From Acidimicrobiia bacterium (GTDB taxonomy: Bacteria; Actinomycetota; Acidimicrobiia; Spongiisociales; ZC4RG35): a DNA stretch of 52,669 nt. The translations under genes and the position numbers were made by a program. Shown here one piece after another: positions 23,000 to 38,118 of this stretch. The notes under the pieces are model-generated. The model saw only the letters and a list, made by a program, of their open reading frames with translations. It searched no databases and was not told where the DNA came from. Numbering within the stretch: position 1 is the stretch's first letter; the number at the start of each line of letters is the position of its first letter. The DNA lies in contig JBFHXF010000003.1 in the NCBI GenBank assembly GCA_041599115.1, positions 1 to 52,669 on the forward strand. The letters are read 5' to 3'.

Positions 23000-23844
23000 G
23001 CCGCCTCGACGTCCGAAAGACCTACAAGCTCTATGTCGGGGGACAATTCCCTCGATCAGAATCAGGTCGCTCCTACCCGGCTCTGGGCCCGGAGAATCAG
23101 GTGCTCGCCAGGGTGGCATTGGCCAGCAGGAAGGACCTTCGTGACGCCGTCAGAGTGGCAAGAAAGGCGCAGCCCGACTGGGCGGGCCTGACCGGCTACC
23201 ACCGCGGGCAGATCCTCTACCGGGTTGCCGAGACACTGGAGGACCGGGCAGACTCGTTCGTCGGGCTGCTGCAGGACCTCGGCGCCACCCGATCCAAGGC
23301 AAGAACGGAGGTCGGCCGGTCAGTCGACAGAATCGTCTGGTATTCCGGTTGGGCGGACAAGTTTGCCCAGATCTACGGGAACCTCAACCCGGTGGCCGGA
23401 CCTTTCTTCAACATCTCTTCTCCCGAACCGACCGGCGTTGTCGGATTGATCGCACCGGAGGAGCCCGCTCTGCTCGGACTCGTCACCAATCTGGCCCCGA
23501 TCCTGGTCCCGGGCAATACCGTGGTCGCCCTGGTGTCAGAGAGCGCGCCCACGCCAGCGATCACCTTTGCCGAGGTCCTGAACTCGTCAGACCTACCCGG
23601 AGGAGTGGTCAACCTGTTGACCGGATCGAAGGATGAGCTGATCCCTTATCTCGCAGACCATATGGATGTCAACGCCGTCGCCGTCGGTGGCGCCACCCCG
23701 GACCAAACCGAGCGAGTCCAGGAGGGCGCGGTCCACAATGTCAAGCGGGTGGTTCTACCTCGAGCCGATGGGGTGATGCAGAGTCCGTACCAGATCGCCG
23801 CATTCACCGAGATCAAAACGGTTTGGCATCCCAAAGGGCTCTAG
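22996..23844 (+). CDS. Short aldehyde-dehydrogenase-family partner protein lacking the catalytic domain
   Basis: KTYKLYVGGQFPRSESGR...EIKTVWHPKG; the usual third gene of the deoC-ALDH-ALDH operon. Confidence 0.85.
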   Translation: MSRLDVRKTYKLYVGGQFPRSESGRSYPALGPENQVLARVALASRKDLRDAVRVARKAQPDWAGLTGYHRGQILYRVAETLEDRADSFVGLLQDLGATRSKARTEVGRSVDRIVWYSGWADKFAQIYGNLNPVAGPFFNISSPEPTGVVGLIAPEEPALLGLVTNLAPILVPGNTVVALVSESAPTPAITFAEVLNSSDLPGGVVNLLTGSKDELIPYLADHMDVNAVAVGGATPDQTERVQEGAVHNVKRVVLPRADGVMQSPYQIAAFTEIKTVWHPKGL

Positions 23845-23856
23845 GAGGAGTCTCGC

Positions 23857-25083
23857 ATGAGCCCAAGTCGTGCCGTGGTGGACATCGGCGATCCCGATCT
23901 CTACATCGATTCCGTTCCACATTCTCGATTTCGCAGGCTCCGTGACGAGCAGCCGCTCAGCTTCCACGAGGAGGCAGACGGATCCGGGTTTTGGGCGCTG
24001 GTCCGCTACCAAGACGTAGTCGATGTGGGTCGGGATTGGCGCACCTTCTCCTCGGCGCAGGGCAGCACTCTCGAGGAGCTGGACGAGGATCAACTCGCCG
24101 TGCGACGCTCGATGCTCGACCTCGACCCGCCCGCACACACCCGACTTCGCCGACTGGTGACACCGGCTTTCACACCCAAAGTGGTGCGCAGCTACGAGAC
24201 GGCCTTCCGAGAACTCACCCGGGATGTCATCGGCAAAACTGCGGCGCTCCGCCGATTCGACCTCGTCGAGGTCGTCTCCAAACAGCTCCCGGTGCTGTGG
24301 CTGTGTCGCCACCTTGGAGTCCCCGAGTCAGAGGCCGATCGGATGATCGAGTGGACCGACCGGATGCTGGGCCAGAGCGACCCCGAATATCTGGAAAGCG
24401 ACGATGACGATCGGACGCGATACGCCCCATTCGGCACGATCGCCGGGCTCGAGGCCTACCGGTACGCAGCCCAGTTGGCCGCCGAGCGGCGGAACGATCC
24501 CACCGATGACCTCATGTCGAAGATCCTCTTCGCCGAACCCAACGGCGAGCCACTTACCGACGCCGAGTTCCAGAATTTCTTCACCGTCCTGATGATCGCC
24601 GGTCAGGAGGCCTCGCGGCACGCCGTTTCTCATGGCACTCTCGCCTTGATCCAGAATCCCGAGCAGCTTGCTCGGCTGCAGGATGATTCGACGCTGATGA
24701 CCACCGCCACCGAGGAGATCATCAGGTGGGCGACGCCCATCTACCAGTTCCGACGCACCGCTACCACCGATGTGACGATGCACGGCGAGACGATCAGATC
24801 GGGAGACAAGGTGACGGTGTGGTACATCTCAGCCAATTTCGATGAAGCCATGTTCGATGACCCGCTGGCATTCGACGTTGGCCGAACTCCCAATGACCAC
24901 GTCGCCTTTGGAAAGGGCGGGCCCCATCTGTGCCTCGGCGCCGGTCTGGCGCGACTGCAGGTCCAAATCGCTTTCGAAGAACTGCTGCCGCTGATTCCTC
25001 GGATGAAGCTCGACGGGCCGGTCGAGAGGCTTCGCTCCAACTTCATCCACGGGATCAAGCACCTGCCGATTGTCATCGACTGA
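23857..25083 (+). CDS. Cytochrome P450 (CYP124/125-like), I-helix Thr replaced by Ala
   Basis: DPPAHTRLR, EEIIR (ExxR), FGKGGPHLCLG heme Cys; I-helix reads AGQEAS. Confidence 0.93.
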   Translation: MSPSRAVVDIGDPDLYIDSVPHSRFRRLRDEQPLSFHEEADGSGFWALVRYQDVVDVGRDWRTFSSAQGSTLEELDEDQLAVRRSMLDLDPPAHTRLRRLVTPAFTPKVVRSYETAFRELTRDVIGKTAALRRFDLVEVVSKQLPVLWLCRHLGVPESEADRMIEWTDRMLGQSDPEYLESDDDDRTRYAPFGTIAGLEAYRYAAQLAAERRNDPTDDLMSKILFAEPNGEPLTDAEFQNFFTVLMIAGQEASRHAVSHGTLALIQNPEQLARLQDDSTLMTTATEEIIRWATPIYQFRRTATTDVTMHGETIRSGDKVTVWYISANFDEAMFDDPLAFDVGRTPNDHVAFGKGGPHLCLGAGLARLQVQIAFEELLPLIPRMKLDGPVERLRSNFIHGIKHLPIVID

Positions 25084-25091
25084 CCCGCGGA

Positions 25092-26225
25092 CTATTTCTT
25101 CTGCATCCGCTCCAGAACTGCCCTGGTGAGACTCTCGATCTCGTCGGACGTGACCGCGCCCCTCTCCCACAAGACCTGGTTCACCGCACGCCGGACCCGC
25201 GATTCCTGTCGAAGAGAATCCAGGCCACCGCCCCTCTCATCGGCTCTGGTGCCCTGGCTCGGCGTGACCTTCTTCAGAGGGCCCGGGTCCGGGCTGGGGC
25301 CGTCGAAGCCGAGAGCCGCCACCCGTGAGCGCACTGTGTCAGCCGCCTTCTTCATGAGCCCCATCTCTTCGTCGGTGAGGGACAGTTCGACGACTTCGAT
25401 AACTCCCCGACCTCCCAGACGGGCCGGCACTCCGAGGTACACATCGGTGAGCCCGTATTCGCCACGCAGGTAGGCGCAGGCCGAAACGACCCGTCTCTCA
25501 TCGCCGGCAATGGCCGTGGCCATGTCGGCGATCGAAGCCGAAGGCGCCATCCAGGCCGAGCCCCTCGGCAGAAGCGCAACGATCTCCGCACCGCCGTTCC
25601 GGGTGCGCTCGACAAGTTCCTCCACGCGCGAGGCCGGAAGGAGCGAGGTCAGTGGGCGGCCCGCCACATTGGTCAACCGGGGCAACGGCACCATCGTCTC
25701 GCCGTGAGACCCAAGCACGATGGCGTCGACTTGGTCGGGATGGACACCGAGCTCGGCCGCAATGAAATACCGATAGCGGGAGGTATCGAGCTCACCCGCC
25801 ATTCCCACGACCTTCTCCGACGCAAAGCCACTGGCCTTCCACGCCAGAGTCGTCATCTCGTCGAGAGGGTTGGTGACGATGATCAAGATGGCGTTGGGCG
25901 ACCGCCGGCTCACTTCCTCGGTCACCCCCGCGACGATCTCGGAGTTCGTGGCCAAGAGGTCCGAGCGGCTCTGACCGGGCTTGCGGGGAAGGCCCGCGGT
26001 GATGATGACCAGATCCGAACCTTCCGTTGGTCCGTAGTCAGAGCTGCCGACGATGTCGATGGTGTGGCCCCGCAACGGGGCCGACTGAGCGAGGTCCAAG
26101 GCGACTGCCTGAGGCAGGCCTTCGACCACGTCGATGAGGGCCAACGATGTGGCAGTCCGATCCTCGAGCAGACGCAATGCGGTTGTGGCTCCAACCATGC
26201 CCGCGCCGACCACCGATACCTTCAT
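25092..26225 (-). CDS. mdh: LDH-like malate dehydrogenase with C-terminal encapsulation-peptide-like extension
   Basis: VGAGMVG, TAGLPRKPG.SRSDL (MDH Arg), VTNPLD, LDTSR, GSHG, RTRNGGAEIV; ~69-aa tail ending DEIESLTRAVLERMQKK. Confidence 0.88.
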   Translation of the reverse strand: MKVSVVGAGMVGATTALRLLEDRTATSLALIDVVEGLPQAVALDLAQSAPLRGHTIDIVGSSDYGPTEGSDLVIITAGLPRKPGQSRSDLLATNSEIVAGVTEEVSRRSPNAILIIVTNPLDEMTTLAWKASGFASEKVVGMAGELDTSRYRYFIAAELGVHPDQVDAIVLGSHGETMVPLPRLTNVAGRPLTSLLPASRVEELVERTRNGGAEIVALLPRGSAWMAPSASIADMATAIAGDERRVVSACAYLRGEYGLTDVYLGVPARLGGRGVIEVVELSLTDEEMGLMKKAADTVRSRVAALGFDGPSPDPGPLKKVTPSQGTRADERGGGLDSLRQESRVRRAVNQVLWERGAVTSDEIESLTRAVLERMQKK

Positions 26226-26539
26226 GACTCACCTTCACAGCCGCAAGAGTGTTCAACTCTGAGCATCACCGCCGTCACCAGATCCTCCAGGCCGGAGAGA
26301 TCGCGTCCGGTCTTCAGCAGGGCCCGGCGAGCGATCATTCGCACCTTCGACTCCTTCACCAATCGATGAAGGCCGGGCTTGTGGCTCGGTTCAGACCCGG
26401 TGGTCGTCTCGTCGAAGGCCACCCCCAACACCGCGGCCCGGTCCCTGGCCAGAGGGGTCACCAGCGTGTCGTCATCGACGGCGAGCCCGGTACCCGCCGC
26501 CGCAGCGGCTTCCACCTCGGCGCGGGTGACGACTCTCAT
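26222..26539 (-). CDS. Small BMC-associated protein (VTPLARD domain, encapsulation-like helices, CxC tail)
   Basis: MRVVTRAEVE...DTLVTPLARDRAAVLGV resembles the small domain of EutQ-type BMC accessory proteins; ATGA overlaps with both neighbours. Confidence 0.75.
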   Translation of the reverse strand: MRVVTRAEVEAAAAAGTGLAVDDDTLVTPLARDRAAVLGVAFDETTTGSEPSHKPGLHRLVKESKVRMIARRALLKTGRDLSGLEDLVTAVMLRVEHSCGCEGES

Positions 26540-27153
26540 GACTCTCGACCGGGTATTCCGGCCAGAGCTGCCGTGGCTGCGTCCCGTGCGGTGAGGATAT
26601 CGGACTCCAACCCCGAGAGAAAAAGGCGGCCAAAGCGGCCGGCATTGGAAACGTACACGATGTCGATATCGGCGCTCTTTTCGGCTTCGTTGGCGGCGAG
26701 GCTGGCATACGCCGCCGGGAAGACCTCCATGACGCACAGGGTCCGTCCCGGCACGAGCAGCGAGCCCCGGCGAAACTTGTTGATGAGTTGGGCCTGGTGC
26801 GGGTCGACGTTGGTGATCACCTGGCTCGAGGCCACGACCGGTCTGAAACGGTCTTCCTCGGACACGCCGAGGTAGTCGAGGATCGCCCCGCCCGCTGCTC
26901 TGACCGCGGCCTGGTCGTAGGAGTGCACCTCCAGCAGCCCGAACTCCCGTTCGATGAACTGGGTGGCGGGCCGGACCGGCGCCGCCTTCAAGGCAGCATC
27001 GGCCACGGCGAATATCTCATTCGAAGGTGCCATCTCCACGAACAACTCGGCCATCCCCGCAACCGGGACATCACCCTGAACGGTGGCCCCAACGTAGGCC
27101 GCATACTGGGGCTGCATGCGATCTATGAAAACGTAGGCCCTCAGTTCGCTCAT
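26536..27153 (-). CDS. BMC-T tandem-domain shell protein, double-stacking (CcmP/BMC-Tdp) type
   Basis: ELRAYVFIDRMQPQYAAY, EMAP, EREFGLLEVHS, PAAYASLAANEAEKSA, GRFGRLFLSG. Confidence 0.92.
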   Translation of the reverse strand: MSELRAYVFIDRMQPQYAAYVGATVQGDVPVAGMAELFVEMAPSNEIFAVADAALKAAPVRPATQFIEREFGLLEVHSYDQAAVRAAGGAILDYLGVSEEDRFRPVVASSQVITNVDPHQAQLINKFRRGSLLVPGRTLCVMEVFPAAYASLAANEAEKSADIDIVYVSNAGRFGRLFLSGLESDILTARDAATAALAGIPGRES

Positions 27154-27154
27154 C

Positions 27155-28636
27155 TCAGACTCCTTGCAACGGCCGGTCCAGACGGGCGAGGACCCGGTGG
27201 ATGAGGTCTTCTGCCATGGCCTGACCGTTATTGGCCAGGTTGGCCAGACCCGATGGGTGGGCATTCGAGGCGTTCATCAGTTCACGCCAATCGCGTATTC
27301 CGCGGGCGACCCTCTTGCGGTTGATGAGGTGCAGCGGTCCGATGTTGTCCGCTGTGATGGTGCCGCCCCAGGTACCGGTGCCCAACATGAAGGACGGCGA
27401 CAACCCCGCGGTGCCGCCCATTGCCCCGAAACAGGACGGGGTGTTGACCAGGACGCGGAAGGCTCTCATACGGGCGCCATATGCCGCCGCCACCCGCTGA
27501 TCGGATGCCCATATCGCCGCCGTGTGTCCGTCGCCGCCATAGCGGAGCAATTCTCCGGCGCGGGCAAAGCCCTCGTCTGTGCCGCCCGTCTCATACCACT
27601 TGAGGGTGGAGGTGAGGATCTCTTTCGATAGAGGATGTTCGGGACCTACCCCTTGTGGAGTCACCACCAGGACCGTCGTCGAGGGATCAACTCTCAGCCC
27701 CGCCCGCTCGGCGAGGACCTGGGGGGACTGTCCCACCAGCGCCGGATTGACCGCTCCCTCCGAGGTGAGAACGACGGCCTCAAGCCTCTTCGTCTCGTCG
27801 TCCGTGAGGAATCTCGCCCCCGCCATCTCGAAGGTCTGACGGGTGCGGATCGCAATGCCTTTGTCGACGACCACGGCCTGTTCGGAGGCACACGGGGTCC
27901 CGAAGTCGAAGGTGCAACTGGCGATGGTCCCCGTCACGCAGTCGTCCAGGTCGCCCACAGACTGGTGGATGTAGGAGGGCACGTTCCCCGGGCCCACTGC
28001 ATACGTCGGTTTGCCCGATGAGTAGGCCGCCTTGACCATGGCTATCGACCCTGTGGCGAGGACGACATCCACCGCCCAGTGCGACCAGAGCTCCTGAGTT
28101 CCTGGCAGCGACACCTCGGTCATGCACTGCACCAACCCCTCGGGAGCTCCGACGGATGAGAGGGCCTTCACCAGTGTTTCGGCGGCAGCAACTGACGCTT
28201 TCATGGCGCGCGGGTGGGGGGCCATGACGATCGCGTTGCGTGCCTTGACCGCGATGAGAGCCTTGAAGAAGACGGTTGATACCGGGTTGGTGGTTGGAAT
28301 CAGGGCGGCGATCACGCCCATCGGCTCGGCTATCTCGACAACCCCCGCCTCCGCCCCGGCCGAGATAACCCCGACGGTGTGGAGGGGGGCGATTGCCTCG
28401 TACACATCGATTGCGTTGAATAGATCCTTGATGAGCTTGTGATCAGACCGGCCATAACCGGTTACTTCCACCGCCAGCTCCGACAGCCCTGGAGAGGCTC
28501 GACGGGCGGCCTGGGACATGGCCTCTACCGCACGATCGACCTCTGGCTGCGAGGCGTCGGCCCAGAGCCGCGCCGCTTCCCTGGCTTTGACCGCGAGGTC
28601 GCGCGCCTGCTGAATCGACTGCAGGTCGGTGTCCAC
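27155..28636 (-). CDS. Acylating (CoA-dependent) aldehyde dehydrogenase, EutE/PduP/AdhE-N family, with C-terminal encapsulation peptide
   Basis: PTTNP.ST, HPRA, AYSSGKP, GPGN, FDFGTPCASEQ (catalytic Cys), EIL, GHTA, LGTGTWGG; tail MAEDLIHRVLARL. Confidence 0.93.
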   Translation of the reverse strand: MDTDLQSIQQARDLAVKAREAARLWADASQPEVDRAVEAMSQAARRASPGLSELAVEVTGYGRSDHKLIKDLFNAIDVYEAIAPLHTVGVISAGAEAGVVEIAEPMGVIAALIPTTNPVSTVFFKALIAVKARNAIVMAPHPRAMKASVAAAETLVKALSSVGAPEGLVQCMTEVSLPGTQELWSHWAVDVVLATGSIAMVKAAYSSGKPTYAVGPGNVPSYIHQSVGDLDDCVTGTIASCTFDFGTPCASEQAVVVDKGIAIRTRQTFEMAGARFLTDDETKRLEAVVLTSEGAVNPALVGQSPQVLAERAGLRVDPSTTVLVVTPQGVGPEHPLSKEILTSTLKWYETGGTDEGFARAGELLRYGGDGHTAAIWASDQRVAAAYGARMRAFRVLVNTPSCFGAMGGTAGLSPSFMLGTGTWGGTITADNIGPLHLINRKRVARGIRDWRELMNASNAHPSGLANLANNGQAMAEDLIHRVLARLDRPLQGV

Positions 28637-28639
28637 GGA

Positions 28640-29959
28640 CTACCTGTAGAAGCCGAACACGCGGCAAACGCCGGACTCAGCGCATCGCCCTCCGATGGCG
28701 CCGTGGTCCACGTGATGCAACATCTCGTCGGGACTCATGCCTGCGAGCCCGAGGCTCTTGATGGTTCTTCCCTCTTCCCACCAATCGATCCCGCACATGG
28801 CGGAGGCGAGATGAACCATCGAATCGATCGTCGGCGTGGGAACACCGAGAGCGCAGCCAAGGCTGGCAATGGGGACCAGTGAGTTGGGGACATCATCGAG
28901 GATGTGGTTCTGGGCGAGCAAGTGACTCGGAGCGGTGAACCCTTCGTAATAGGGGTTGCGCATCAAGGCGTCGTAGATGTCTTCCCCCACGACGTGGTAG
29001 CTCTCGCGATACCAATCGAGCAACGACCACACCTCTCGCAGACCCAAAGCCCGTGCCACCGACTGCTTCTCCTTGTCGATCTTGTCCATCACGAGGCTGG
29101 CAATGGTCCGGGTGACCTGGTGTTTGTAGAACTTGAGATCCTCCCCTGCCGCGGTTCGCTCGATCACCTGGGTGTTGAGCATCACCGTTCCCGGATGAAC
29201 GATGGGCGCGACGTTGTTGAGGCTGGTCTCCAAGACGTTCTGAGCCGGTTCGATTTGCGGGTAGAGATCACGCACATACTCCATCAAGCCGTCGTTGTCA
29301 GAGGCGGGCAGGGCCGCAGCCCGCATCCTGAACTTCTCCTTGAGGATCTCCACCTTGTTGGGACCGCGTCTCTCTGCGGCGTATATGAAGGTTTGGGTCT
29401 CTCCCAGATAGATCCTGGCCGAACAGGCGAACCGGTTGAGCGTCCGAGCGAATTCCAGGGCGCCCCCGGTCCGCCCGGGGTTGAGCAACACCCGTTGGCC
29501 GTCGCGCAGCATGGGAGCCAGCAGCGAGGCATAGACCCGATGAGACAAGGCGGGAGCCACCACCATGATCAGGTCGGCCCCCTTGACCGCCTCATCGAGG
29601 CTGCGAGTGACCTTGGCCACCTTGCCGAAGCCCTGGACCTCAGGCCCGATGACCTCCACCCCGCCCGACTCCTCGAGCGGCTCGATCTCCCAGGAAAAGG
29701 GCGACCAAACCGTCACCTGAAAACCGAGAATCGCCATGTGGCCGGCCATGGCCAGGCCACCGTTTCCGCCACCGAGTATGGAGACCTTCATCGACCCGGC
29801 CCTCTTGGCGCGTCGGGAGGGATCGACAGCTCGTTCGAACGTCACCGCACCACGAGACTGCATTGGGGCATCGGCCGGGACACGGGCCCCGGTTCCCGTC
29901 ACCCCATGTGTCTGAAGTTCGGCGATGATTGCATCGACTAGGTCGTCGTTGCCTGCCAC
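28640..29959 (-). CDS. NAD(P)-dependent opine (octopine/nopaline) dehydrogenase family protein with 56-aa N-terminal encapsulation-peptide extension
   Basis: ILGGGNGG, LNPGRTGGALEF, ETQT, LETSLNN..PIVHP, DKEK, DDVPNSLVP, GRT..SLGL. Strong SD AAGGAGG before GTG; N-terminus NDDLVDAIIAELQ. Confidence 0.88.
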   Translation of the reverse strand: MAGNDDLVDAIIAELQTHGVTGTGARVPADAPMQSRGAVTFERAVDPSRRAKRAGSMKVSILGGGNGGLAMAGHMAILGFQVTVWSPFSWEIEPLEESGGVEVIGPEVQGFGKVAKVTRSLDEAVKGADLIMVVAPALSHRVYASLLAPMLRDGQRVLLNPGRTGGALEFARTLNRFACSARIYLGETQTFIYAAERRGPNKVEILKEKFRMRAAALPASDNDGLMEYVRDLYPQIEPAQNVLETSLNNVAPIVHPGTVMLNTQVIERTAAGEDLKFYKHQVTRTIASLVMDKIDKEKQSVARALGLREVWSLLDWYRESYHVVGEDIYDALMRNPYYEGFTAPSHLLAQNHILDDVPNSLVPIASLGCALGVPTPTIDSMVHLASAMCGIDWWEEGRTIKSLGLAGMSPDEMLHHVDHGAIGGRCAESGVCRVFGFYR

Positions 29960-29974
29960 GGCGCCTCCTTGGTT

Positions 29975-30265
29975 TTACTTGCCCTGCAAGAGGATTGCTT
30001 CGGTGTCCTGATGAGGTCGTGGAATGACATGCACACTCACCAATTCGCCAACCTTGGCGGCAGCAGCGGCACCGGCGTCGGTGGCCGCCTTGACGGCTCC
30101 GACATCGCCTCGCACTATGACCGTGACGAGACCGCCTCCCACCATCTCCTTGGAGACCAGGGTTACGTTGGCAGCCTTCACCATCGCGTCGGCGGCCTCG
30201 ATTGCGCCAACCAATCCCTTAGTTTCAATCATTCCCACTGCGCTGAGACTTTGCCCGTCAGCCAT
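29975..30265 (-). CDS. BMC-H hexameric shell protein (EutM/PduA/CcmK family)
   Basis: [26 protein letters not shown]...GDVGAVKAA...VHVIPRPH. Confidence 0.97.
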
Positions 30266-30362
30266 TTCGCTTTCTCCTTCTCGTTCAACTCGGTCGTCGA
30301 AGCGACCCTCTTTTTCTTTCCTCTAAGACTTGGAATCGCCGTAGTCCCGCACCCCCCTGTTC

Positions 30363-30659
30363 TCAACGAACCTTGACATAGGTGGCTTCGTCGCCCGCCT
30401 GGATCGAGTCCAGGATGCTCACGATCGAGACATCTGTGGGTGTCGATCGGGTTGACTCGGGAACTCTTGCCGCCGATCCCGTGGCGACCAGCACGATCTC
30501 CCCGACCCCGGCGCCCACGGTGTCGACGGCGACGAAATGCTCACCGTCTTCTAGTTTTCCGTCAGTGCCGCACGGGGCGCACAGCATCAGCTTCTGTCCC
30601 GTCAGATGGGTATCTTTTGCTGTTGATACGACGGTACCGACGATCTTGGCCAGCCTCAT
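30363..30659 (-). CDS. BMC-P pentameric vertex protein (EutN/CcmL family)
   Basis: MRLAKIVGTVVSTAK...VAVDTVGAGVGEIVLVATGSAAR...DVSIVSILD. Confidence 0.96.
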   Translation of the reverse strand: MRLAKIVGTVVSTAKDTHLTGQKLMLCAPCGTDGKLEDGEHFVAVDTVGAGVGEIVLVATGSAARVPESTRSTPTDVSIVSILDSIQAGDEATYVKVR

Positions 30660-30669
30660 TTCGCCTCCA

Positions 30670-31986
30670 TCAAAAACTCGCCATGTAACGGTCGACCTCG
30701 GTCCTGGTCACGGTGTTCACTGGGTCCTCCTCGTCGGAACTCATCATGAAGTCGTATTCCCGCTGGGCCTGTCCCACCAAGGTCTCGATGAGCATCGGAT
30801 GAAACAGGCCCTTGACCATAGATGACTTGTTGAAGCGCTCGATCGCCTCGGGGGTGCTGGTGGGCAACGGCTCGGCATCGGCCAATTCGTAGGCGTTGCC
30901 CGTCGTCATCGGACCCGGCTCCAACTCGTTGACCACACCATCTATCCCCGCGGCGATCTGTCCACCCACCAGGAGGTACGGGTTGCTGTCGGCAGTTCCA
31001 TCGCGCTGTTCGATCCGGACCGCGTTGGGTTCGCCCTCGATGACCCGGATCCCCAAGGTCCTGGTGTCGTGGCCCCATGCGGTGTTTACCGGGCAGAACG
31101 TATAGGGCTGACGTCTCTTCATGGCGTTCGGAGTCGGCGCGGCCAAAAGAGCGAGGTCTGCCATGTGACGTTGCAGACCACCCAGGTAATGAAGTCCCAG
31201 GGTGGAGAGCCGCCCATCGTCGGAGAAGGCATTGACGCCGTCCCTCCAGAGTGATTGGTGGACGTGGAAGCCGGAGCCCGACTCGTCGAAGAACGGTTTT
31301 GCCATGAAGGTGGCCAGAAGACCATGGCCGGCGGCGATCTCCTTGACGCAGTTGCGAAAGAGCATTGCGTTGTCGGCGGCGCTGACTGCGTCGGAGTAGC
31401 GCAGGTTCACTTCGAATTGACCGGCCGAGTACTCGGGGTTGGAGACTTCCACCTGTATCCCGAACTCGGTACAGAGATTGCGAATCGGCCCGACAACGTA
31501 TTCGAATCGGCTTCCTCTAGCAAGGCCGTACACCGCGATACCGCTGTCGAGTGGGCGCTTGGTCTCGGGGTCGAGAAGATAGAACTCGAGTTCGGTTCCG
31601 ACTTTGACCTCATACCCGAGGTCCCTGGCCCGGTCCACTGCGGTGAGGAGCACCGCTCGAGGATCCACCGGCACCGGCCCGCCGTCGGGAATCTCTTCGG
31701 CACGGCACAGCGTGAGAACAACGCCCTCCTCCCAGGGAACTTTCCTCAGGGTGCCTGGAATGGGCACTATGTGGACATCGGGATACCCGTTGTCGAAGTT
31801 GCCATAGGGGGTATCCCAGATGTCAGAGACCATATCCATCTGGAATAGCGCGTTTGCCAGGGCAACCCCGTGGTGCGCCGTGCCCTCCCACATGTTGGCC
31901 TGCAACCTCTTGCCTCGGGCTATCCCGTTCAGGTCACCGATGGCGAGTACGACGGTATGGGTGCCTTCGGGGAGAGAGTCCATCAT
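30670..31986 (-). CDS. Glutamine-synthetase-family gamma-glutamyl:amine ligase (GlnA4/PuuA-like)
   Basis: DLNGIARGK, ELEFYL, EYSAGQFE, ATFMAKP, GSGFHVHQS, RIEQR..ADSNPY. Flap region reads QPYTFCP, with Phe where ammonium-using GS has Glu (PGYEAP). Confidence 0.85.
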   Translation of the reverse strand: MMDSLPEGTHTVVLAIGDLNGIARGKRLQANMWEGTAHHGVALANALFQMDMVSDIWDTPYGNFDNGYPDVHIVPIPGTLRKVPWEEGVVLTLCRAEEIPDGGPVPVDPRAVLLTAVDRARDLGYEVKVGTELEFYLLDPETKRPLDSGIAVYGLARGSRFEYVVGPIRNLCTEFGIQVEVSNPEYSAGQFEVNLRYSDAVSAADNAMLFRNCVKEIAAGHGLLATFMAKPFFDESGSGFHVHQSLWRDGVNAFSDDGRLSTLGLHYLGGLQRHMADLALLAAPTPNAMKRRQPYTFCPVNTAWGHDTRTLGIRVIEGEPNAVRIEQRDGTADSNPYLLVGGQIAAGIDGVVNELEPGPMTTGNAYELADAEPLPTSTPEAIERFNKSSMVKGLFHPMLIETLVGQAQREYDFMMSSDEEDPVNTVTRTEVDRYMASF

Positions 31987-32080
31987 GCGTCCCTTCTTGA
32001 ATTGGTGCCCGGATCGTATCCGCCGCGATGATTGGCCGACGGGGCGAATACCTCGATCCGCTCTATGGAAGGAACAATTC

Positions 32081-33502
32081 CTACCACGTGAACTCCTTGT
32101 CGATCCCGGCGAGTTTCACTCCGGTGAAGGCGGAAGCCTGCAAACTGAGGGCGCGCAGGTCCTCCTTCTCCAGGTTGTGAACACTCGACTTACCGCAAGC
32201 CTTGGCCAGAAGGCTGATTTCCATGGTCCAAGCCGTGAGAAAACGCGCTACTCGCTCGGCGCCGGCGGCAACGTCCATCCGCTCTTCCAGGGCGGGCTCC
32301 TGTGTCGTGATTCCGACGGGGCAGAGACCGGTGTGGCAATGGTGGCAGCGGCCGGGTGCGGTGCCGAGCTTCTCGTAATCCTCGAAATACCGGGGTGAAT
32401 TGCAGCCCAGCGCCATCAGTGAGGCGAATCCGATCATCACTGCGTCGGCGCCCAAGGCGAGACACTTGGCGGCGTCGGTGCCTGACCGAATACCGCCGGC
32501 AGCGACGAGCTTGACCTCATCGGCCAGTCCGGTCTCCTCGAGTGCCTCCCGGGCGGCGGATATGGCGGACATCGTGGGGACCCCGGTGTGGTCCAGCAAG
32601 AGCTCCGGGGATGCGCCGGTCCCACCCTCCGCCCCATCGAGGACAATCACATCGGCTCCGGCTTTGGCGGCAACGGCTACGTCGAAACGCGGGCGGGTTG
32701 CGCCCATCTTGACGAAGATCGGGATTCGATAGTCGGTCGCCTCCCGGAGCTCCTCGATCTTGACCTTGAGATCGTCACCACCAAGGAAGTCGGGGTGCCG
32801 CACCGTTGACCGCTGGTCGACTCCCGCCGGAAGGGTGCGCATGCCGGCCACTCGCTCCGATACCTTCATCCCGAGCAGAAGGCCGCCGGTCCCCGGTTTT
32901 GCTCCCTGTCCGACGACGATTTCGATCCCGTCGACCATCCGGAGATGGTCGAGGTCCAGCATGTAGCGGCTTGGGGTCATCTGATAGACGAGACGTTGGG
33001 ATGCCGTCCGCTCATCCTCCAGCATGCCCCCTTCACCGGTGCAGGTCATGCTCCCCACCTTGGACGCGCCATAGCCCAAGGCCGCTTTGGCCGAGGCGGA
33101 CAGGGCGCCGAAGGACATCGAGGCGATGTAGATGGGGATGTCCAGCTCGAGGGGTTGTTCGACAAGACCCGGCCGGTCGCCGAGCACGGTTGTGGTGTCA
33201 CAGCTCTCGCGGTAACCCTCCAGGGGAAGCCGGGTCATTGTGGCCGGGACGAAGACCAAGTCATCGAGTGTGGGAAACCGGGGATTGAAAGCCGAAAAGC
33301 CCCTTATCTGATAGCGGCCGAGCTGGGCGATGGCGTGTGCCTCGGCGATGGCCTCGGGAGTCCATCTCGGCGAATTGCCGCGCTCGTAGGACGACGGCAC
33401 GCCCGCCGGGCGGCCCGGAATGCTGCCGTCAGAGAACCCGATGAGTTCCTCGCTCGGCATCTCGAAGGGGTAGGTGTACTCGTTGCTCAAATCATCAGCC
33501 AT
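32081..33502 (-). CDS. FMN-binding glutamate-synthase-family protein (GlxD/MgsC-like)
   Basis: SMSFGALS, TGEGG, GQGAKPGTGG, GGIRSG.D.AKCLALGAD, CHHCHTGLCPVGITTQ; start MADDLS at 33502. Confidence 0.9.
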   Translation of the reverse strand: MADDLSNEYTYPFEMPSEELIGFSDGSIPGRPAGVPSSYERGNSPRWTPEAIAEAHAIAQLGRYQIRGFSAFNPRFPTLDDLVFVPATMTRLPLEGYRESCDTTTVLGDRPGLVEQPLELDIPIYIASMSFGALSASAKAALGYGASKVGSMTCTGEGGMLEDERTASQRLVYQMTPSRYMLDLDHLRMVDGIEIVVGQGAKPGTGGLLLGMKVSERVAGMRTLPAGVDQRSTVRHPDFLGGDDLKVKIEELREATDYRIPIFVKMGATRPRFDVAVAAKAGADVIVLDGAEGGTGASPELLLDHTGVPTMSAISAAREALEETGLADEVKLVAAGGIRSGTDAAKCLALGADAVMIGFASLMALGCNSPRYFEDYEKLGTAPGRCHHCHTGLCPVGITTQEPALEERMDVAAGAERVARFLTAWTMEISLLAKACGKSSVHNLEKEDLRALSLQASAFTGVKLAGIDKEFTW

Positions 33503-34185
33503 GCTTTTGAATCCCTGCTCGTGAAGTACCACAACCCCTGGGCGGAGATGATCTTCTTCCAATCGCGGTTGCTGCTTTCCAGACTGCGGGTGGAGAGCAG
33601 CTTTTCCACGTCTTCGACCTCGTGGGACTCGGGCTCCACGACTTTCGAGTCGACGCCGAGCGACCCGATCGGGCCGGCCACCCAGACCTCACCCCCCCAC
33701 AGCGAATCGGCGGTGGCCTCGCCTGCCCCGCCCAGGGCGATGATGCGGCCGGCGTGACCCATGAAACCGCTCAGGTAGCCGATGCGACCCTCGACGATGA
33801 TGTCGCCACCTTTCATCGCCACCCCGCAACGAGGGCCGGCATCTCCCTTTATGTGGATGAGCCCGCCCCGCATCGAGGCGCCAACGCTCATCCCCGCATA
33901 GCCGTGGACCACTATCTCTCCCGAGGCCATCGCCTCGCCCAGGCCCCAACCGGCGTCACGGGTGATCTCGATGTCGGCCCCGTTGTTCAAGCCGCCGCAG
34001 TAGTAACCGACGCTTCCCTCGAAGGTCACCCGAGCCCCATGGGGGAGGCCGATCCCGAGGTTGTGCCGGGACAGGGTGTTGGTGACCACTACATCCTGGC
34101 CCATCTCGAGGGCGGCACGGATTGCCAGGTTGATCTCTCTGGTCGGCCGATCACCGGCTTCTATGTTGACAACGTCTCCCATCAC
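33487..34185 (-). CDS. GXGXG glutamate synthase alpha-C-like protein (GlxC/MgsB-like)
   Basis: GSVGYYCGG, G.AMASG, AGPRCGVAMKGGDIIV, GFMGHAG beta-helix repeats. Confidence 0.88.
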   Translation of the reverse strand: MMGDVVNIEAGDRPTREINLAIRAALEMGQDVVVTNTLSRHNLGIGLPHGARVTFEGSVGYYCGGLNNGADIEITRDAGWGLGEAMASGEIVVHGYAGMSVGASMRGGLIHIKGDAGPRCGVAMKGGDIIVEGRIGYLSGFMGHAGRIIALGGAGEATADSLWGGEVWVAGPIGSLGVDSKVVEPESHEVEDVEKLLSTRSLESSNRDWKKIISAQGLWYFTSRDSKAWLMI

Positions 34186-35123
34186 ACCCTCTCCGCCACT
34201 TTTATGTCCCAGGTGGCGGTCCGATCCGGTCCGTCATAATTGATCACGTCGACCTCCCGGCGATAGACCTTGCGTAGCGCCTGCTCCTCGGTCGCCACGG
34301 CCAGGTCGGGACCGTCCTCGACGACGGCTACGGGCTTGATGGCCCATCGATCCTTGGCCAGCCCAAGCCGATTCGGCGTCGCTATCAAGTAGGTGAAGAC
34401 CCCGTCGAGAGCACGAAGGCTGAGAGTCAGGGCTTCATCGAGACCCCTGCCGTGAGCCATTTGGTCGGAGATCCAGATGGCAATCAGTTCCGAATCGTTG
34501 TCGGTCTTGAAACGATATCCCTGACGGGTCAGCCTGTCTCGGAGCAGGTGGTAATTGGTCAGCTGACCATTATGGACGATGGCCACATCGGGGAATGGCC
34601 GAGCCCAGAACGGGTGACTGGCCGTCGGCGACACCCGGGATTCGGTGGCCATGCGGGCGTTGGCGATGCCATGACTTCCGATGAAATCGGCGACCGGATG
34701 CTTGGCCGCCACATCCAGGGCGCTCCCGACATCCTTGATGATCTCGAGGGACTTGCCTACCGACTGAATCTCGAAACGGGGAAGGTCGTCGGCGACGGCG
34801 AGCCACTCGGCGAGGCCCGCCGAAGGCTCCGACATGACCATCCTCACCGAGACGTGTTGCTGGGTGGTGGTGTCCCATGTCGGATCCTCGAGAAAGTCGC
34901 CTCCGAACCCGCGTAGCACCGAGAGGAACCGATCCAAATCCGACGACAGCAGATCCCGATCGCTGGTCACCACCCGGACGACGTACCCCGCGTCTCGGGG
35001 AGCGCCGTAGAGAGCGAATCCCGTGGAGTCTCCGCCACGGTGCACCTGGGCCTGCATCATGGCGACCAGGTCTGAGCCGATGGGCCCAGGCTCAGCAAGG
35101 ATTCGGCCGGCAATACCGCACAT
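34182..35123 (-). CDS. Class II (Ntn) glutamine amidotransferase (GlxB/MgsA-like)
   Basis: MCGIAG N-terminal Cys, HRGGDSTG, RMATES, HPF, HNGQLTN, TDNDSE; SD GGAGGAG. Confidence 0.9.
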   Translation of the reverse strand: MCGIAGRILAEPGPIGSDLVAMMQAQVHRGGDSTGFALYGAPRDAGYVVRVVTSDRDLLSSDLDRFLSVLRGFGGDFLEDPTWDTTTQQHVSVRMVMSEPSAGLAEWLAVADDLPRFEIQSVGKSLEIIKDVGSALDVAAKHPVADFIGSHGIANARMATESRVSPTASHPFWARPFPDVAIVHNGQLTNYHLLRDRLTRQGYRFKTDNDSELIAIWISDQMAHGRGLDEALTLSLRALDGVFTYLIATPNRLGLAKDRWAIKPVAVVEDGPDLAVATEEQALRKVYRREVDVINYDGPDRTATWDIKVAERV

Positions 35124-35148
35124 CAGGTCTCCTCCGCCCGGAGAATAG

Positions 35149-35171
35149 CTTTTGTATACAGTACACAAAAG
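35149..35171. promoter_or_regulatory. Palindromic operator candidate upstream of the glxB-like gene
   Basis: CTTTTGTATACAGTACACAAAAG is a near-perfect 23-bp inverted repeat. It is AT-rich in a GC-rich context and contains a TACTGT -10-like hexamer on the minus strand. Confidence 0.7.
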
Positions 35172-35178
35172 TTGGGGA

Positions 35179-35772
35179 TCAGAATCTGAGAATTCTCTCG
35201 ACCAGGCCCAGTTGGGACTTCGCCTCGTCGAGCCGGATGGGCACGGTGTAAGGGGGGAGCGGCGGGATGAACACGGCGGTGATGGTCCCCGGCAGTGAAA
35301 TCAACTCCACTTGCCGACCCCCGACCGCCTCCATGACACGAAGCTTTTTCAGCTCGGAGCCTTCGATAAGACTGCGGATCCGGGTATCGCCGGAGAGCGC
35401 CGCTGCCAGGGCTGCGCTCTGAGCACCTCCCGATCGCACGGAGAACCGTTTCTTGTCGAATCGATAGGTCAGGATGTCCGGATTCGCCGCGACACTCCCC
35501 CGGCGCCCCACCCACATGGTGTCGATGAGCACGCCGAACAGACGGGTCTGGCCCTTGAACCCGACCTCAATGACCACATCGTCGTCGAGGTTTATCCGGG
35601 CCGAGCGAAACTCGGGATCGACCTGCACGTCTATCGATCGGCTCTGCAGCGCCGTGATCGGCTCTTGCAGGATTCGCCGCCGCCGACCCTTGTAGAGCAA
35701 CGAGGCACGACGTCGCAAAGAGAACGGAGCCGACCCGTCGGGTCGGCTCCGTTCAGACCGGTTGGGTGTCAC
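35179..35772 (-). CDS. Hypothetical protein, DUF3156-like
   Basis: Overlaps the permease stop. C-terminal pattern (SGG..AALAAALSGD..LKKLRV..VELISLPG..PPLPPYTVPI) recalls DUF3156 proteins found next to APC amine permeases; family call is from memory. Confidence 0.6.
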   Translation of the reverse strand: MTPNRSERSRPDGSAPFSLRRRASLLYKGRRRRILQEPITALQSRSIDVQVDPEFRSARINLDDDVVIEVGFKGQTRLFGVLIDTMWVGRRGSVAANPDILTYRFDKKRFSVRSGGAQSAALAAALSGDTRIRSLIEGSELKKLRVMEAVGGRQVELISLPGTITAVFIPPLPPYTVPIRLDEAKSQLGLVERILRF

Positions 35773-37190
35773 AGCTTCTGGTGGACTTCTTCCTCGAGAT
35801 GCGAAGCGACGCCGGAGGTCCCTCGCAAGGCGTAGGAAACGATCGCCGCAACCAGCGACCCGGCGAATATCCAGAGCGACCGGACCCCGAAGAGGTCATG
35901 GGCGCCTTGGAATGCGTAATAGATCGCCAGGACCGTGAGCACGATACCGACGACCGGCACCCAGAGTTGGAGCTGGAACGGCCGGTCGACGTCGGGATTG
36001 GCGTAGCGCGAGGTGATCACCATCACGTGATAGAGCACGTAGATGATCAGCCAGGCATACGCCGCCGAATAGACCAGTTCCAACACGTCTCCGAATGCGA
36101 GCGCCGCCCAGGTGTAGACCACACCCGTGACGATGATCGCGGTCCACGGTGTCCGAAAGCGAGGGTGCAGGGAGCTGAACACTCGCGACACCGGGCCGAA
36201 GAAGTGACCATTACGCGAAACGCCGTAGAGCACCCTGGGCATGGCGGCATAGACGATCGCCATCGAGGCCAATGTGGCCAGGAACGTCGCCAGCGCCATC
36301 AAGGTACGTCCGGTGTCACCGAACATGGCCTGCCCCACCGCCAGTTGGGCGCAGCCGCCTTCGCATCCTGCGGCGCTGGTAGCCGTCGCCAACCAGTCAC
36401 TGGTCGGCTGGGTTCCACCTACGCCGAAGCCCATCAGCAGCGATGTGAACAGGATCACCACCATGGCGGCGATGATCCCACGGGGGATATTCCTGTTCGG
36501 GTCCTTGGTCTCCTCGGCCAGTGGGGCAACGAACTCGATGCCGACGAAGCTCCAGAATGCCAGGGCCACGCCACCGGCCATGACAGTCGTCCAATCGAAC
36601 ATCCCGACGCCGGCATTCCAGTTGCCGGCGCTCCACCCCCCGGTGTCACCCAGGCCGAAAAAGCCGGCCGCGCCGAAGAACCAGCGCAGCCCCAGCATGC
36701 CGATGATCAGGTACAACTCGACCTTTGCCAGCACCTCGATCCCGAGCAGGTTGGGGATGATCGCCAGGATCGTCATAGCGACGATCCAGGGCCAGACGTC
36801 ACCCGTCGCGCTGAAGAGCGCCTGGAACCCGAAGGCACCGGCCAGGGTCTCCCCTGCACCGGCGAAGGCAAACATGCCATAGAAGGCGAAGGCCAGGAAG
36901 ATTCCCGTTATACCCGCCAGGGCACCCGTTCCCGGAACCGACGCCGCTCCGTAGTCGTACAGGGCTCCCGCCTTGGGGTACGTCGTGGCAAGCTCGGCCA
37001 CCGCCAAACCCAGCAACATGTTGATCACAAAGGCGACGACCAGCGCTGCAATGAAAGCGGTGCCGATCGAGAACCAACCGTTGAAGTCGCTGACCAGGGT
37101 CGTTGCCGCCACGATGAGTCCGACTCCTGCGACGAATACGTCACGTGTGCCGAGGGCTTTGATCAAGCCTGACTCTGTGGACTGTGTCAT
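35769..37190 (-). CDS. APC family amino acid/amine permease
   Basis: About 12 hydrophobic segments, ELATTYPKAG, FVGIEFVAPLAEETKDP..NIPRG, RPF; SD GAGGAGG before MTQSTE. Confidence 0.92.
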   Translation of the reverse strand: MTQSTESGLIKALGTRDVFVAGVGLIVAATTLVSDFNGWFSIGTAFIAALVVAFVINMLLGLAVAELATTYPKAGALYDYGAASVPGTGALAGITGIFLAFAFYGMFAFAGAGETLAGAFGFQALFSATGDVWPWIVAMTILAIIPNLLGIEVLAKVELYLIIGMLGLRWFFGAAGFFGLGDTGGWSAGNWNAGVGMFDWTTVMAGGVALAFWSFVGIEFVAPLAEETKDPNRNIPRGIIAAMVVILFTSLLMGFGVGGTQPTSDWLATATSAAGCEGGCAQLAVGQAMFGDTGRTLMALATFLATLASMAIVYAAMPRVLYGVSRNGHFFGPVSRVFSSLHPRFRTPWTAIIVTGVVYTWAALAFGDVLELVYSAAYAWLIIYVLYHVMVITSRYANPDVDRPFQLQLWVPVVGIVLTVLAIYYAFQGAHDLFGVRSLWIFAGSLVAAIVSYALRGTSGVASHLEEEVHQKL

Positions 37191-37246
37191 AGGCCTCCTC
37201 CCGTTCCGGCCGCTCTGTCCCACGGCACTCGCCGTAGCGGCCGATA

Positions 37247-37263
37247 TTGGATACAGTATGCAT
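37247..37263. promoter_or_regulatory. Second operator candidate between the permease and gntR
   Basis: TTGGATACAGTATGCAT shares the palindromic core TG-N-ATAC-A-GTAY-N-CA with the site at 35149-35171. Confidence 0.65.
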
Positions 37264-37398
37264 CTGGGACCGTCCCTGCAACTGATCCTGAAAACCCGAT
37301 CAGGGGGGAGCAGCGGCGAAACATGGATCCGGCTGCCCTTATCGGGGGGAGATCGGTATCCTTCCCGGGTAAAACGAAGCAACCGCGAGCCCTCAGAT

Positions 37399-38118
37399 AT
37401 GAGCCCTCGATTCGTCAAAATCGAGCACACCCAGCCCCGTCTCGTTGATCTGGTCTACGAGCAGGTGCTGAGCGCCATAATGTCCGGAGAGATAGGCCCC
37501 GGTGACCGGCTCATTCAGGAGACTCTCGCCGAGGAGATCAACGTGAGCAGGACGCCGGTCCGGGAGGCACTGCTGCGTCTTGAGCGTGAGGGGATCATAG
37601 AACTATCGGGTCGGCGTGGTTTTCGGGTTCGGGACATCAGTGATCGCGAGATCGAGGACATATACCAGGCCCGCCAGGCGATCGAGGGCTATGCAGCCCG
37701 GTTGTTGGCCGATCGGGGAACCGAGGTCGGCCTGAGGAGAATCAGCGATGTCTTCAAGGAGCAGGTTCTGACGACGCAAGATTCCGTCTCGGCGGCGTTC
37801 CGGGCCAATCGAATCCTCCACCGGGCCATAGTCGAGGCCACCGGCAACGCCTACCTCCTCGAGTTGTTCGACGGGATCTGGGGGCGAAGCGTGGCCATCC
37901 GACTCTATGCCGACCTGTTCAACGCCGACGACTTCGCCGAATCCTTCCTCGAAGGCCATGCCGGACTGCTGGAGGCGTTGTCGTCCCGTGACGGCGACCG
38001 GGCTGCAGAGGCCATGGAGGAACATATTCGCTCGGGTTTGAAGGCCCATCTTGCCGCTCACTCTTGGTGGCGGGAGGGAGCTTCTCAGGCCGAGAAGGTG
38101 CCTTCCGCCAGAACCTGA
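37399..38118 (+). CDS. GntR family regulator (FadR/FCD subfamily)
   Basis: LAEEINVSRTPVREALLRLE HTH; FCD N..LH..I..ATGN, H..LLEAL..RD..AMEEHI. Divergent from the permease. Confidence 0.92.
   Translation: MSPRFVKIEHTQPRLVDLVYEQVLSAIMSGEIGPGDRLIQETLAEEINVSRTPVREALLRLEREGIIELSGRRGFRVRDISDREIEDIYQARQAIEGYAARLLADRGTEVGLRRISDVFKEQVLTTQDSVSAAFRANRILHRAIVEATGNAYLLELFDGIWGRSVAIRLYADLFNADDFAESFLEGHAGLLEALSSRDGDRAAEAMEEHIRSGLKAHLAAHSWWREGASQAEKVPSART

Follow-up and report, generated by a model that had tools for sequence, protein, structure and literature searches.

We describe here a bacterial microcompartment (BMC) locus in a 52,669-nucleotide stretch of an Acidimicrobiia genome (GenBank assembly GCA_041599115.1, contig JBFHXF010000003.1; the whole stretch is called the window below). 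In this locus, shell genes stand in one run with genes for an opine-dehydrogenase homologue (OpDH), a CoA-acylating aldehyde dehydrogenase (AldDh), a malate dehydrogenase (MDH), a glutamine-synthetase-like (GS-like) ligase and a three-gene, glutamate-synthase-like set (glxBCD). The gene content, the targeting extensions, the linkage of the genes and the active-site differences of OpDH are direct observations. With due reservations, we lean towards reading the locus as that of an amine-catabolising metabolosome, in which OpDH would make an aldehyde from N-alkylglutamate formed in the cytosol, AldDh would trap the aldehyde and MDH would re-oxidise the NADH.

Shell and enzyme genes form one locus

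The window corresponds to contig C3 in an assembly of 2.39 Mb (267 contigs, 94% complete, 63% G+C), and four DNA runs, all from one marine metagenome study, contain the stretch. Between positions 25092 and 37430, thirteen minus-strand genes overlap or are separated by at most 97 nt. In the direction of transcription they encode a permease, a DUF3156-like protein, GlxB, GlxC, GlxD, the GS-like ligase, BMC-P, BMC-H, OpDH, AldDh, BMC-T, a small protein and MDH (Table 1). An earlier, sequence-only reading of the window had placed and oriented these genes correctly; the family calls used here come from Pfam and NCBIfam profile searches of the window proteins.

Genes of the families PF00936 (BMC-H and BMC-T) and PF03319 (BMC-P) lie together in the run, the clustering by which a microcompartment locus is recognised, and the only two PF00936 hits in the genome are the BMC-H (101 bits) and BMC-T (30 bits) of this locus, which bears out the assignment to a microcompartment made in that reading. 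BMC-T, whose true start is Met38 of the open frame to judge from its homologues, matched the CcmP model beta_CO2some_P with 258 bits over 202 residues, under the cut-off of 340. The predicted shell is minimal, consisting of one BMC-H, one BMC-P and one CcmP-like BMC-T.

The gene set recurs in other Actinomycetota

A conservation scan with one genome per species, in which all window proteins were compared with the loci by tblastn, recovered 18 loci with an OpDH relative (54–90% identity) from Acidimicrobiia, Thermoleophilia and unclassified Actinomycetota; the records are named as metagenome-assembled genomes of Acidimicrobiia, Actinomycetota, Gaiellales or Thermoleophilia. OpDH stands beside other genes of the set in all 18. 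It is accompanied by AldDh in 17 loci, by BMC-T in 16, and by BMC-H, BMC-P, the GS-like gene, the glx trio and MDH in 15 each. Apart from MDH, genes are missing where the contig is 2.4–4.9 kb long (L003, L005 and L020) or, as in L013, starts inside the cluster.

Two gene orders occur. Group 1 (the window, L003–L008, L011, L014 and L018–L020) reads glxBCD–GS–P–H–OpDH–AldDh–T–small–MDH, and group 2 (L009, L010, L012, L013 and L015–L017) reads P–H–AldDh–T–MDH–OpDH–small; L012 and L013 carry the glx, permease and regulator genes 3–6 kb after the core. Acidimicrobiia and Thermoleophilia thus keep the shell genes linked to glxBCD, the GS-like gene and OpDH, in both orders, and this conservation was a check that had been set beforehand. 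Recurrence in 18 loci of different species takes the arrangement far beyond chance.

The linkage is also specific and the system rare. Eight of 401 sampled Acidimicrobiia genomes carry an orthologue of at least 73% identity and 16 others only paralogues (28–40%); a second sample of 401 genomes, drawn from the phylum, held three with an orthologue, including the unpublished G563. Ten paralogue regions were compared, with twelve paralogue genes among them, and none of the other set genes lies near any of these.

Between the two groups, identity is 70–75% for OpDH, 74–83% for GlxD and 57–70% for the GS-like ligase, and lower for AldDh (44–49%), MDH (42–44%) and BMC-T (49–52%). These unequal values suggest either that modules have been exchanged or that the amine module and the shell/core module have changed at unequal rates.

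OpDH carries a putative targeting helix and an altered active site

OpDH scores 121.6 bits against Octopine_DH (PF02317; Pfam cut-off 30) and has the Rossmann N-domain. Its closest solved structure is Arthrobacter CENDH (1bg6; E = 2e-65 over residues 59–409), and scallop octopine dehydrogenase (OcDH; 3c7a) is more distant (E = 1e-14). In all 17 copies whose N-terminus lies on the contig, the protein begins with the helix (D/N)DLVEAIVAEL and a Pro/Ala-rich linker of variable length, after which come a conserved FERAVDPSRR and the Rossmann fold. An AlphaFold2 (AF2) model of the window protein places the helix at residues 4–17 and disorder up to residue 45. Encapsulation peptides are described as having this same helix-plus-linker design in the main text of a catalogue of BMC loci (PMC8217296). 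The conserved helix and linker support the earlier suggestion, still a prediction, that the opine dehydrogenase is encapsulated.

With CENDH and scallop OcDH, OpDH shares the fold, the Rossmann motif and the catalytic residues: His255 is kept in 19/19 shell-linked copies, and the Asp297 position holds Asp in 16 and Glu in 3. It differs from them in three ways. The Arg292–Tyr293 pair of CENDH is replaced by Asn–His in 19/19 shell-linked copies (Arg292 is present in 12/12 unlinked paralogues and Tyr293 in 11/12), an N-terminal extension of ~55 residues precedes the fold, and a tail of ~18 residues with two invariant Cys, GGxCxExGVCRxFGFYR, closes the protein in all 19 shell-linked copies and in none of the 12 paralogues. 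To judge by these features, shell-linked OpDH is a distinct subtype of the CENDH/OcDH family.

The changed pair has an engineered counterpart. According to a review (PMC6033044), the best CENDH variant evolved towards non-carboxylated ketones carries seven cleft mutations, R292V and Y293H among them. The natural Asn–His pair thus coincides with two engineered positions, at one of them with the identical residue (His), and it would fit, without proving it, a carbonyl product that has no carboxylate, that is, a plain aldehyde.

Closeness to CENDH also admits another order of events, in which a secondary amine or an opine-like N-substituted amino acid would be what is imported and OpDH would cleave it first, the ligase and GlxBCD then processing the released primary amine, possibly with a second pass through OpDH. 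Enrichment on an N-carboxyethyl amino acid yielded the strain that CENDH came from, according to the same review (PMC6033044); APC permeases transport compounds that resemble amino acids, and the order of reactions is not fixed by the order of genes. We nevertheless judge this course quite improbable: the changed residues of OpDH speak against the classical opine reaction that releases a keto acid, neither a hydrolase nor a further dehydrogenase is conserved among the loci, and the same downstream steps would still be needed, so the scheme is no simpler.

A search for distant relatives of OpDH covered 1.84 billion representatives. Further relatives with an N-terminal helix are P0040, P0055 and, more distantly, P0042; a metagenome scan with P0040, which bears the encapsulation peptide, returned only two unrelated paralogue loci at 35–37% identity. 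As a separate observation, 27 of 28 genomes of a small-genome actinobacterial family (f71; 1.3–2.3 Mb) hold an OpDH relative of ~38–40% identity with no N-terminal extension.

A putative glutamate-linked amine module precedes the shell genes

The glx genes divide an amidotransferase, a GXGXG and an FMN domain among three proteins, which is the architecture of GlxBCD and MgsABC. The N-terminal Met-Cys-Gly of GlxB is conserved in the homologues of all 15 related loci that have the gene, and the closest solved structures to GlxD are the FMN domains of GltB. Three motifs that we take to form the ammonium site of glutamine synthetase, FDGSS, the Tyr179 region and the GYEAP flap, are missing from the GS-like ligase; the two canonical glutamine synthetases of the genome keep them. 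These two genes and a canonical GltB gene (on C8) lie elsewhere in the genome, so the GS-like and glx copies of the locus are extra. The ligase falls under the cut-offs of the models for GlnA, GSIII/GmaS and gamma-glutamylputrescine synthetase (PuuA type). No encapsulation-like extension was seen at the N-terminus of the ligase or of GlxB, nor in the full GS-like alignment.

Aldehyde dehydrogenase and malate dehydrogenase

The solved structures nearest to AldDh are the acetaldehyde dehydrogenases 5j78 (E = 1e-120) and 3k9d. Its C-terminus consists of a linker and an amphipathic, encapsulation-peptide-like helix, AEDLIHRVLARLD, which ten loci share, the window included.

MDH lies above the TIGR01763 cut-off (368 against 351.85 bits; PRK06223, 381 against 283), which confirms the identity that the sequence-only reading had given it; that reading had left it without a role. 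The specificity loop reads GLPRKPGQSR, its Arg presumably marking specificity for oxaloacetate. A C-terminal extension of 70 residues ends in an amphipathic two-helix module, found in 5/5 group-1 copies that are complete there, and a separate housekeeping MDH is encoded on C253 (PRK05442, 528 bits). No alcohol dehydrogenase is encoded within 25092–38118, and the extension-bearing MDH stands in that place.

The three presumed lumen enzymes are all reversible NAD(H) enzymes, and opine dehydrogenases are described as synthases in most known settings (PMC4575208, PMC6033044). An anabolic or detoxifying organelle could therefore be imagined, with AldDh in reverse, OpDH coupling the aldehyde to glutamate, MDH giving NADH from malate, and an N-alkylated amino acid as the product. 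This we hold to be very improbable. With its permease, its GntR/FCD regulator and a GS-like ligase that uses ATP, the locus is composed like a catabolic operon, and no exporter or downstream biosynthetic gene is conserved. Moreover, the reduction of oxaloacetate by NADH is strongly favourable and the oxidation of malate by NAD+ unfavourable.

A small protein resembling the EutQ N-terminus

The protein encoded between BMC-T and MDH, previously called a small BMC protein, has no PF00936 match, and a profile search gave no family hit; it resembles instead the N-terminus of EutQ. It is laid out as a EutQ-N-terminus-like domain, a helical hairpin like the tail of MDH and a C-terminal Cys-x-Cys, the first ~45 residues being the part that aligns with EutQ. 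A profile of 13 such proteins aligned with residues 2–65 of Escherichia coli EutQ (hhalign probability 74%, E = 2.8e-5), and C99 and C101 are invariant in the alignment (13/13). The AF2 model (predicted local confidence, pLDDT, 82) had no match at E ≤ 0.001 in a fold search of the PDB. With EutQ (E. coli b2460), the protein shares the N-terminal domain and then, by eye, a linker and an amphipathic helical stretch; it differs in having no cupin domain and in the added Cys-x-Cys.

The N-terminus of EutQ binds the shell protein EutM. In group-2 loci the corresponding domain of the small protein is also found fused to the N-terminus of MDH, in 7/7 copies. The Thermoleophilia version of the small protein keeps the hairpin, has a longer Cys-rich end and shows no EutQ-N-like part. 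Invariant C-terminal Cys residues thus occur on two presumed cargo proteins, OpDH (28640–28700) and the small protein (26225–26245), where a metal site, a cluster or disulfides are possible.

Proposed pathway and the evidence that bears on it

The reactions named in this section, the direction in which each would run, the part given to MDH and the choice of substrate are all proposals. A GntR/FCD regulator would control a permease/DUF3156 pair and a long operon from glxB to MDH, and the permease would import a primary amine. In the cytosol, the GS-like ligase would join the amine to the gamma-carboxyl of glutamate at the expense of ATP, and the three-subunit glutamate-synthase-like enzyme would move it to the 2-oxoglutarate skeleton, as MgsABC does with methylamine, to give N-alkyl-L-glutamate. 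This dicarboxylate would enter the shell, where OpDH may oxidise the alkyl–nitrogen bond with NAD+ in the lumen and so release glutamate and free aldehyde. The EutE-like AldDh would convert the aldehyde to acyl-CoA. Encapsulated MDH would reduce oxaloacetate to malate, keeping a private NAD pool oxidised, pulling amine oxidation and exporting reducing power, and the small EutQ-N-like protein may tie cargo to shell.

OpDH is proposed as the aldehyde maker because it alone, among the enzymes that bear a targeting peptide, could make one, and N-alkylglutamate as its substrate because no conserved genes other than those of the ligase and the glx trio would supply a secondary amine. A sink for aldehyde and a strongly favourable one for NADH would together drive the cleavage, which would give a reason both for the shell and for MDH in place of an alcohol dehydrogenase. 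A small aldehyde is favoured since the best AldDh matches are acetaldehyde dehydrogenases and no gene for handling an unusual acyl-CoA is conserved. Amines that give a C1–C3 aldehyde, namely ethanolamine, ethylamine, methylamine and 1-amino-2-propanol, are the most likely candidates, each of them unlikely when taken singly. More tentatively, as a possibility that we put short of probable, the locus would represent a new organelle class, in which a malate/oxaloacetate shuttle keeps a private NAD pool oxidised and thereby drives the uphill cleavage of N-alkylglutamate by a re-tooled OpDH, the amine entering as a glutamate adduct and leaving as acyl-CoA.

Several observations weigh against this pathway. 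NAD-dependent opine dehydrogenases favour reductive condensation, so oxidative cleavage needs the pull proposed above. MDH, on which that pull would depend, is truly missing from L011 and L014, and the sole lactate-dehydrogenase-like (LDH-like) MDH in the L011 genome is unlinked to the locus and has no extension. There is no phosphotransacylase in the locus, and none was found in the related loci examined, which leaves CoA recycling unexplained; the genome, 94% complete, has no PduL (PF06130) match and one PTA_PTB gene, on an unlinked 2 kb contig. Six group-2 AldDh proteins have no recognisable targeting peptide at either end. The ligase was earlier called GS-like, which holds by its Gln-synt_C domain. 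It is no GmaS equivalog, scoring 218 bits against TIGR03105 (cut-off 470), and it scores 138 and 137 bits to the GmaS structures 7cql and 9qur compared with ~178 to ordinary glutamine synthetase. The glx trio is matched at the level of domains, as NCBIfam has no curated MgsABC model.

For OpDH, too, some points tell the other way. The whole AF2 model is of low confidence (pLDDT 57), and P0043, a relative with no N-terminal extension, also lacks the Arg. An account of the lost Arg as the binder of the pyruvate carboxylate was dropped: PMC2924402 describes the equivalent residue of the scallop enzyme, Arg324, as an Arg sensor, which closes the domains and has the pyrophosphate of NADH, not the keto acid, as its ligand. 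The significance of the lost Arg is accordingly ambiguous.

Neighbouring genes and other sources of aldehyde

A plus-strand group at 20466–25083 converges on MDH and encodes a DeoC/LacD aldolase (20466–21518), a BADH-like aldehyde dehydrogenase (ALDH), a half-length ALDH fragment of 282 aa and a P450. The ALDH pair recurs in L004, and a P450 70% identical to that of the window lies inside the L012 and L013 loci. Neither the P450, present in the window, L012 and L013 only, nor the BADH-like ALDH, with an ALDH2 homologue in L004 and a weak one in L017, was retained as a core part. Accessory genes vary among the loci (P450, BADH-like ALDH, SDR and Peptidase_C26). In L006, a Peptidase_C26/class-I amidotransferase gene (17989–18774) follows the DUF3156-like gene, and an SDR gene (14976–15842) lies between MDH and the permease; Peptidase_C26 is, we presume, the family of gamma-glutamyl-GABA hydrolase, and the gene fits with gamma-glutamyl intermediates.

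The statement of the sequence-only reading that the locus holds no aldolase stands for 25092–38118, though the DeoC-family aldolase lies 3.6 kb past the end of MDH on the opposite strand. With the BADH-like ALDH beside it, it could be an alternative source of aldehyde, as could the diol dehydratase that lies ~4 kb downstream of MDH in L018 and L019. OpDH would then act reductively, regenerating NAD+ or scavenging aldehyde as opine dehydrogenases do in invertebrate muscle, a direction that their equilibria favour, and GlxBCD and the GS-like ligase would handle nitrogen separately. In the main text of the catalogue, aldolases of family PF01791 are linked with the SPU type and possibly with HO (PMC8217296). 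We consider such a source improbable all the same. A DeoC aldolase is found near none of the 18 related loci, and no helix-plus-linker was seen in its N-terminus; it was rejected as a signature enzyme on these grounds. No EutB, diol dehydratase large subunit or PFL-like glycyl radical enzyme was found in the genome (94% complete), although for the diol dehydratase the control genomes also gave no match; this agrees with the earlier statement that the locus has no EutBC, PduCDE or glycyl radical enzyme. In most loci MDH would already regenerate NAD+, and the strict linkage with glxBCD and the GS-like gene would go unexplained.

The Thermoleophilia loci have further features. An extra BMC-H gene lies between AldDh and BMC-T (L075 = G401:C20:9468–9737), and the diol dehydratase, of the B12 type, lies past an AlkA gene (G401:C20:775–3042; L018:17373–19283); its large subunit is present in L018 and L019, and in L019 the same reading frame continues, on the contig, into a match to the medium subunit. 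That contig also carries, at a distance of ~8 kb from the L019 locus, a second shell locus (L075/L076 = G401:C20:21512–33666) with genes for a GS-like protein, a PucR/GAF regulator, a second glxBCD, a BADH-like ALDH, BMC-H, BMC-P and BMC-T, a cyclophilin-like DUF3830 protein, a 158-aa protein with no assignment and a methyltransferase, and with no OpDH, acylating AldDh or MDH. Since this locus has its own GS-like gene and glxBCD, it suggests a wider family of glutamate-fed microcompartments, and glutamate-linked amine modules may be tied to shells beyond one locus type.

Transport and regulation

The NCBIfam matches of the permease are far under their cut-offs (2A0306, BcaP and, at 80 bits, ethanolamine permease). 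The name DUF3156-like, given earlier to the protein encoded beside it, rests on a precomputed label (PF11354.14) and a protein atlas score of 0.96 to DUF3156 clusters; hmmscan gave no hit even at E ≤ 10, nor did the genome search, and a comparison with plasmids gave no match. The gene stands beside an APC gene in L004, L006, L009, L010, L012 and L013.

Of the 18 related loci, 15 have a GntR homologue adjoining the cluster; the other three (L003, L005 and L020) are contigs under 5 kb. The control region between the probable starts of the GntR and permease genes is 205 bp long and contains the operator-like palindrome GATACAGTATGC; a second palindrome, TGTACTGTATAC, upstream of glxB, sits inside the larger inverted repeat TTTTGTGTAC-T-GTATACAAAA. 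The pattern [GT][AG]TACNGTAT[AG]C, derived from these two palindromes themselves, has no further match in the window (52.7 kb), so that its only sites there precede glxB and the permease gene. Among 281,745 nt from 15 other loci it has seven hits (in L004, L009 and L015–L017), each of which immediately precedes either glxB or the permease gene; the 12-mer TGTACTGTATAC is identical, and directly upstream of glxB, in L015, L016 and L017. The positions of the palindromes suggest two putative units under one regulator, permease with DUF3156-like gene, and glxB through MDH; the regulatory break would therefore lie elsewhere than between the glx and shell genes. In the promoter and terminator scan no sigma-70-like site was found, and terminator-like hits all fell inside genes.

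Table 1 Features of the locus, with positions in the window, strand and supporting evidence
Feature	Position	Strand	Evidence or remark
GntR/FCD regulator	37396..38118	+	Pfam GntR and FCD; probable start MSPRF... at 37396; divergent from the permease gene
Operator-like palindrome GATACAGTATGC	37250..37261		Spacer between GntR and permease genes
APC-superfamily permease, presumed amine importer	35769..37190	-	Pfam AA_permease_2; open frame to 37430, probable start 37190
DUF3156-like protein, 197 aa	35179..35772	-	Adjoins permease
Operator-like palindrome TGTACTGTATAC	35154..35165		~30 nt upstream of glxB
glxB/MgsA-like class-II (Ntn) glutamine amidotransferase	34182..35123	-	Pfam GATase_6, GATase_7
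glxC/MgsB-like GXGXG subunit	33487..34185	-	Pfam GXGXG
glxD/MgsC-like FMN glutamate-synthase-domain subunit	32081..33562	-	Pfam Glu_synthase, 308 bits
GS-like ligase, presumed gamma-glutamyl-amine synthetase	30670..31986	-	Pfam Gln-synt_C
BMC-P pentamer (vertex) shell protein	30363..30659	-	Pfam EutN_CcmL (PF03319), 95 bits
BMC-H hexamer shell protein, KAAN and PRPH motifs	29975..30265	-	Pfam BMC (PF00936), 101 bits
OpDH, opine-dehydrogenase homologue, proposed signature enzyme	28640..29959	-	Pfam Octopine_DH
AldDh, CoA-acylating aldehyde dehydrogenase, EutE/AdhE-N type	27155..28636	-	NCBIfam EutH_ACDH, 460 bits
CcmP-like tandem-domain BMC-T	26536..27153	-	NCBIfam beta_CO2some_P and Pfam BMC
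Small EutQ-N-terminus-like protein, 105 aa, proposed shell–cargo adaptor	26222..26539	-	Profile comparison with EutQ
LDH-like MDH with 70-aa C-terminal extension, proposed lumen NAD+ regenerator	25092..26225	-	TIGR01763

Comparison with known systems

With the N-methylglutamate pathway (GmaS, MgsABC and MgdABCD), the locus shares a GS-like ligase beside a three-gene split glutamate synthase with an Ntn N-terminal Cys. It departs from that pathway in its ligase, which is under the GmaS cut-off and matches GmaS structures weakly, in the fusion of the module to a shell operon, and in the NAD-dependent opine-type enzyme that would replace the flavoprotein dehydrogenase. MgdABCD is absent from the annotations of the locus, as the sequence-only reading had stated, and from those of the 18 loci related to it; the search for MgdABCD did not extend to the remainder of the genome.

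The ethanolamine (EUT), propanediol (PDU) and RMM metabolosomes, as the main text of the catalogue presents them, share with the locus BMC-H, BMC-P and BMC-T, a type I PF00171 AldDh with a C-terminal peptide, targeting by an amphipathic helix and linker, a regulator and a permease (PMC8217296). The locus differs from them in its proposed opine-type signature enzyme and in having no phosphotransacylase and no alcohol dehydrogenase, with an MDH that bears a targeting extension in the place of the latter; it alone would use glutamate as an amine carrier in upstream cytosolic steps.

Among the catalogued types, ACI, FRAG1-7, HO, MIC2-7 and MUF2-3 are listed in the main text as having AldDh and no obvious signature enzyme (PMC8217296). 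The MIC ('metabolosome with incomplete core') types, and MIC3 especially, come closest: they share this trait, and MIC3 also has a CcmP-like BMC-T(dp) (PMC8217296). The locus, which was compared with the main text of the catalogue, may already be a catalogued MIC type. That main text and the preprint do not contain the terms glutamine synthetase, glutamate synthase, malate (dehydrogenase), opine, pfam02317 or pfam00120 (PMC8217296). A literature search, outside which the catalogue's 68 type descriptions fell, found no paper that connects microcompartments with opine dehydrogenases, with a module of the N-methylglutamate type or with Acidimicrobiia. In the same literature, 'MIC3' was found only in the catalogue and its preprint, and N-methylglutamate synthase and opine dehydrogenase were joined in no catabolic context, their sole co-occurrence concerning the production of N-methylanthranilate. 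The functional reading would be new even if the locus type has already been catalogued.

Implications

To our knowledge, the aldehyde of known metabolosomes is the product of a lyase, dehydratase, aldolase or radical enzyme, and some of it is reduced to an alcohol to recycle NAD+. If the proposed pathway is true, it would be new in having a dehydrogenase as its signature enzyme, in receiving its substrate as a glutamate adduct made in the cytosol and in balancing redox through malate, an arrangement that suits aerobes and loses no carbon. One of the many shell loci with no obvious signature enzyme would gain a function, and OpDH would be a natural opine-type enzyme that maybe accepts non-carboxylated carbonyls, a property otherwise engineered. 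The proposed pathway would also carry glutamate-mediated amine oxidation beyond methylotrophs. Were methylamine the substrate, formaldehyde would for the first time be known to have a compartment built to contain it. As the hosts are uncultured Actinomycetota of sea and soil, the pathway may be of consequence for how amines are turned over in those environments.

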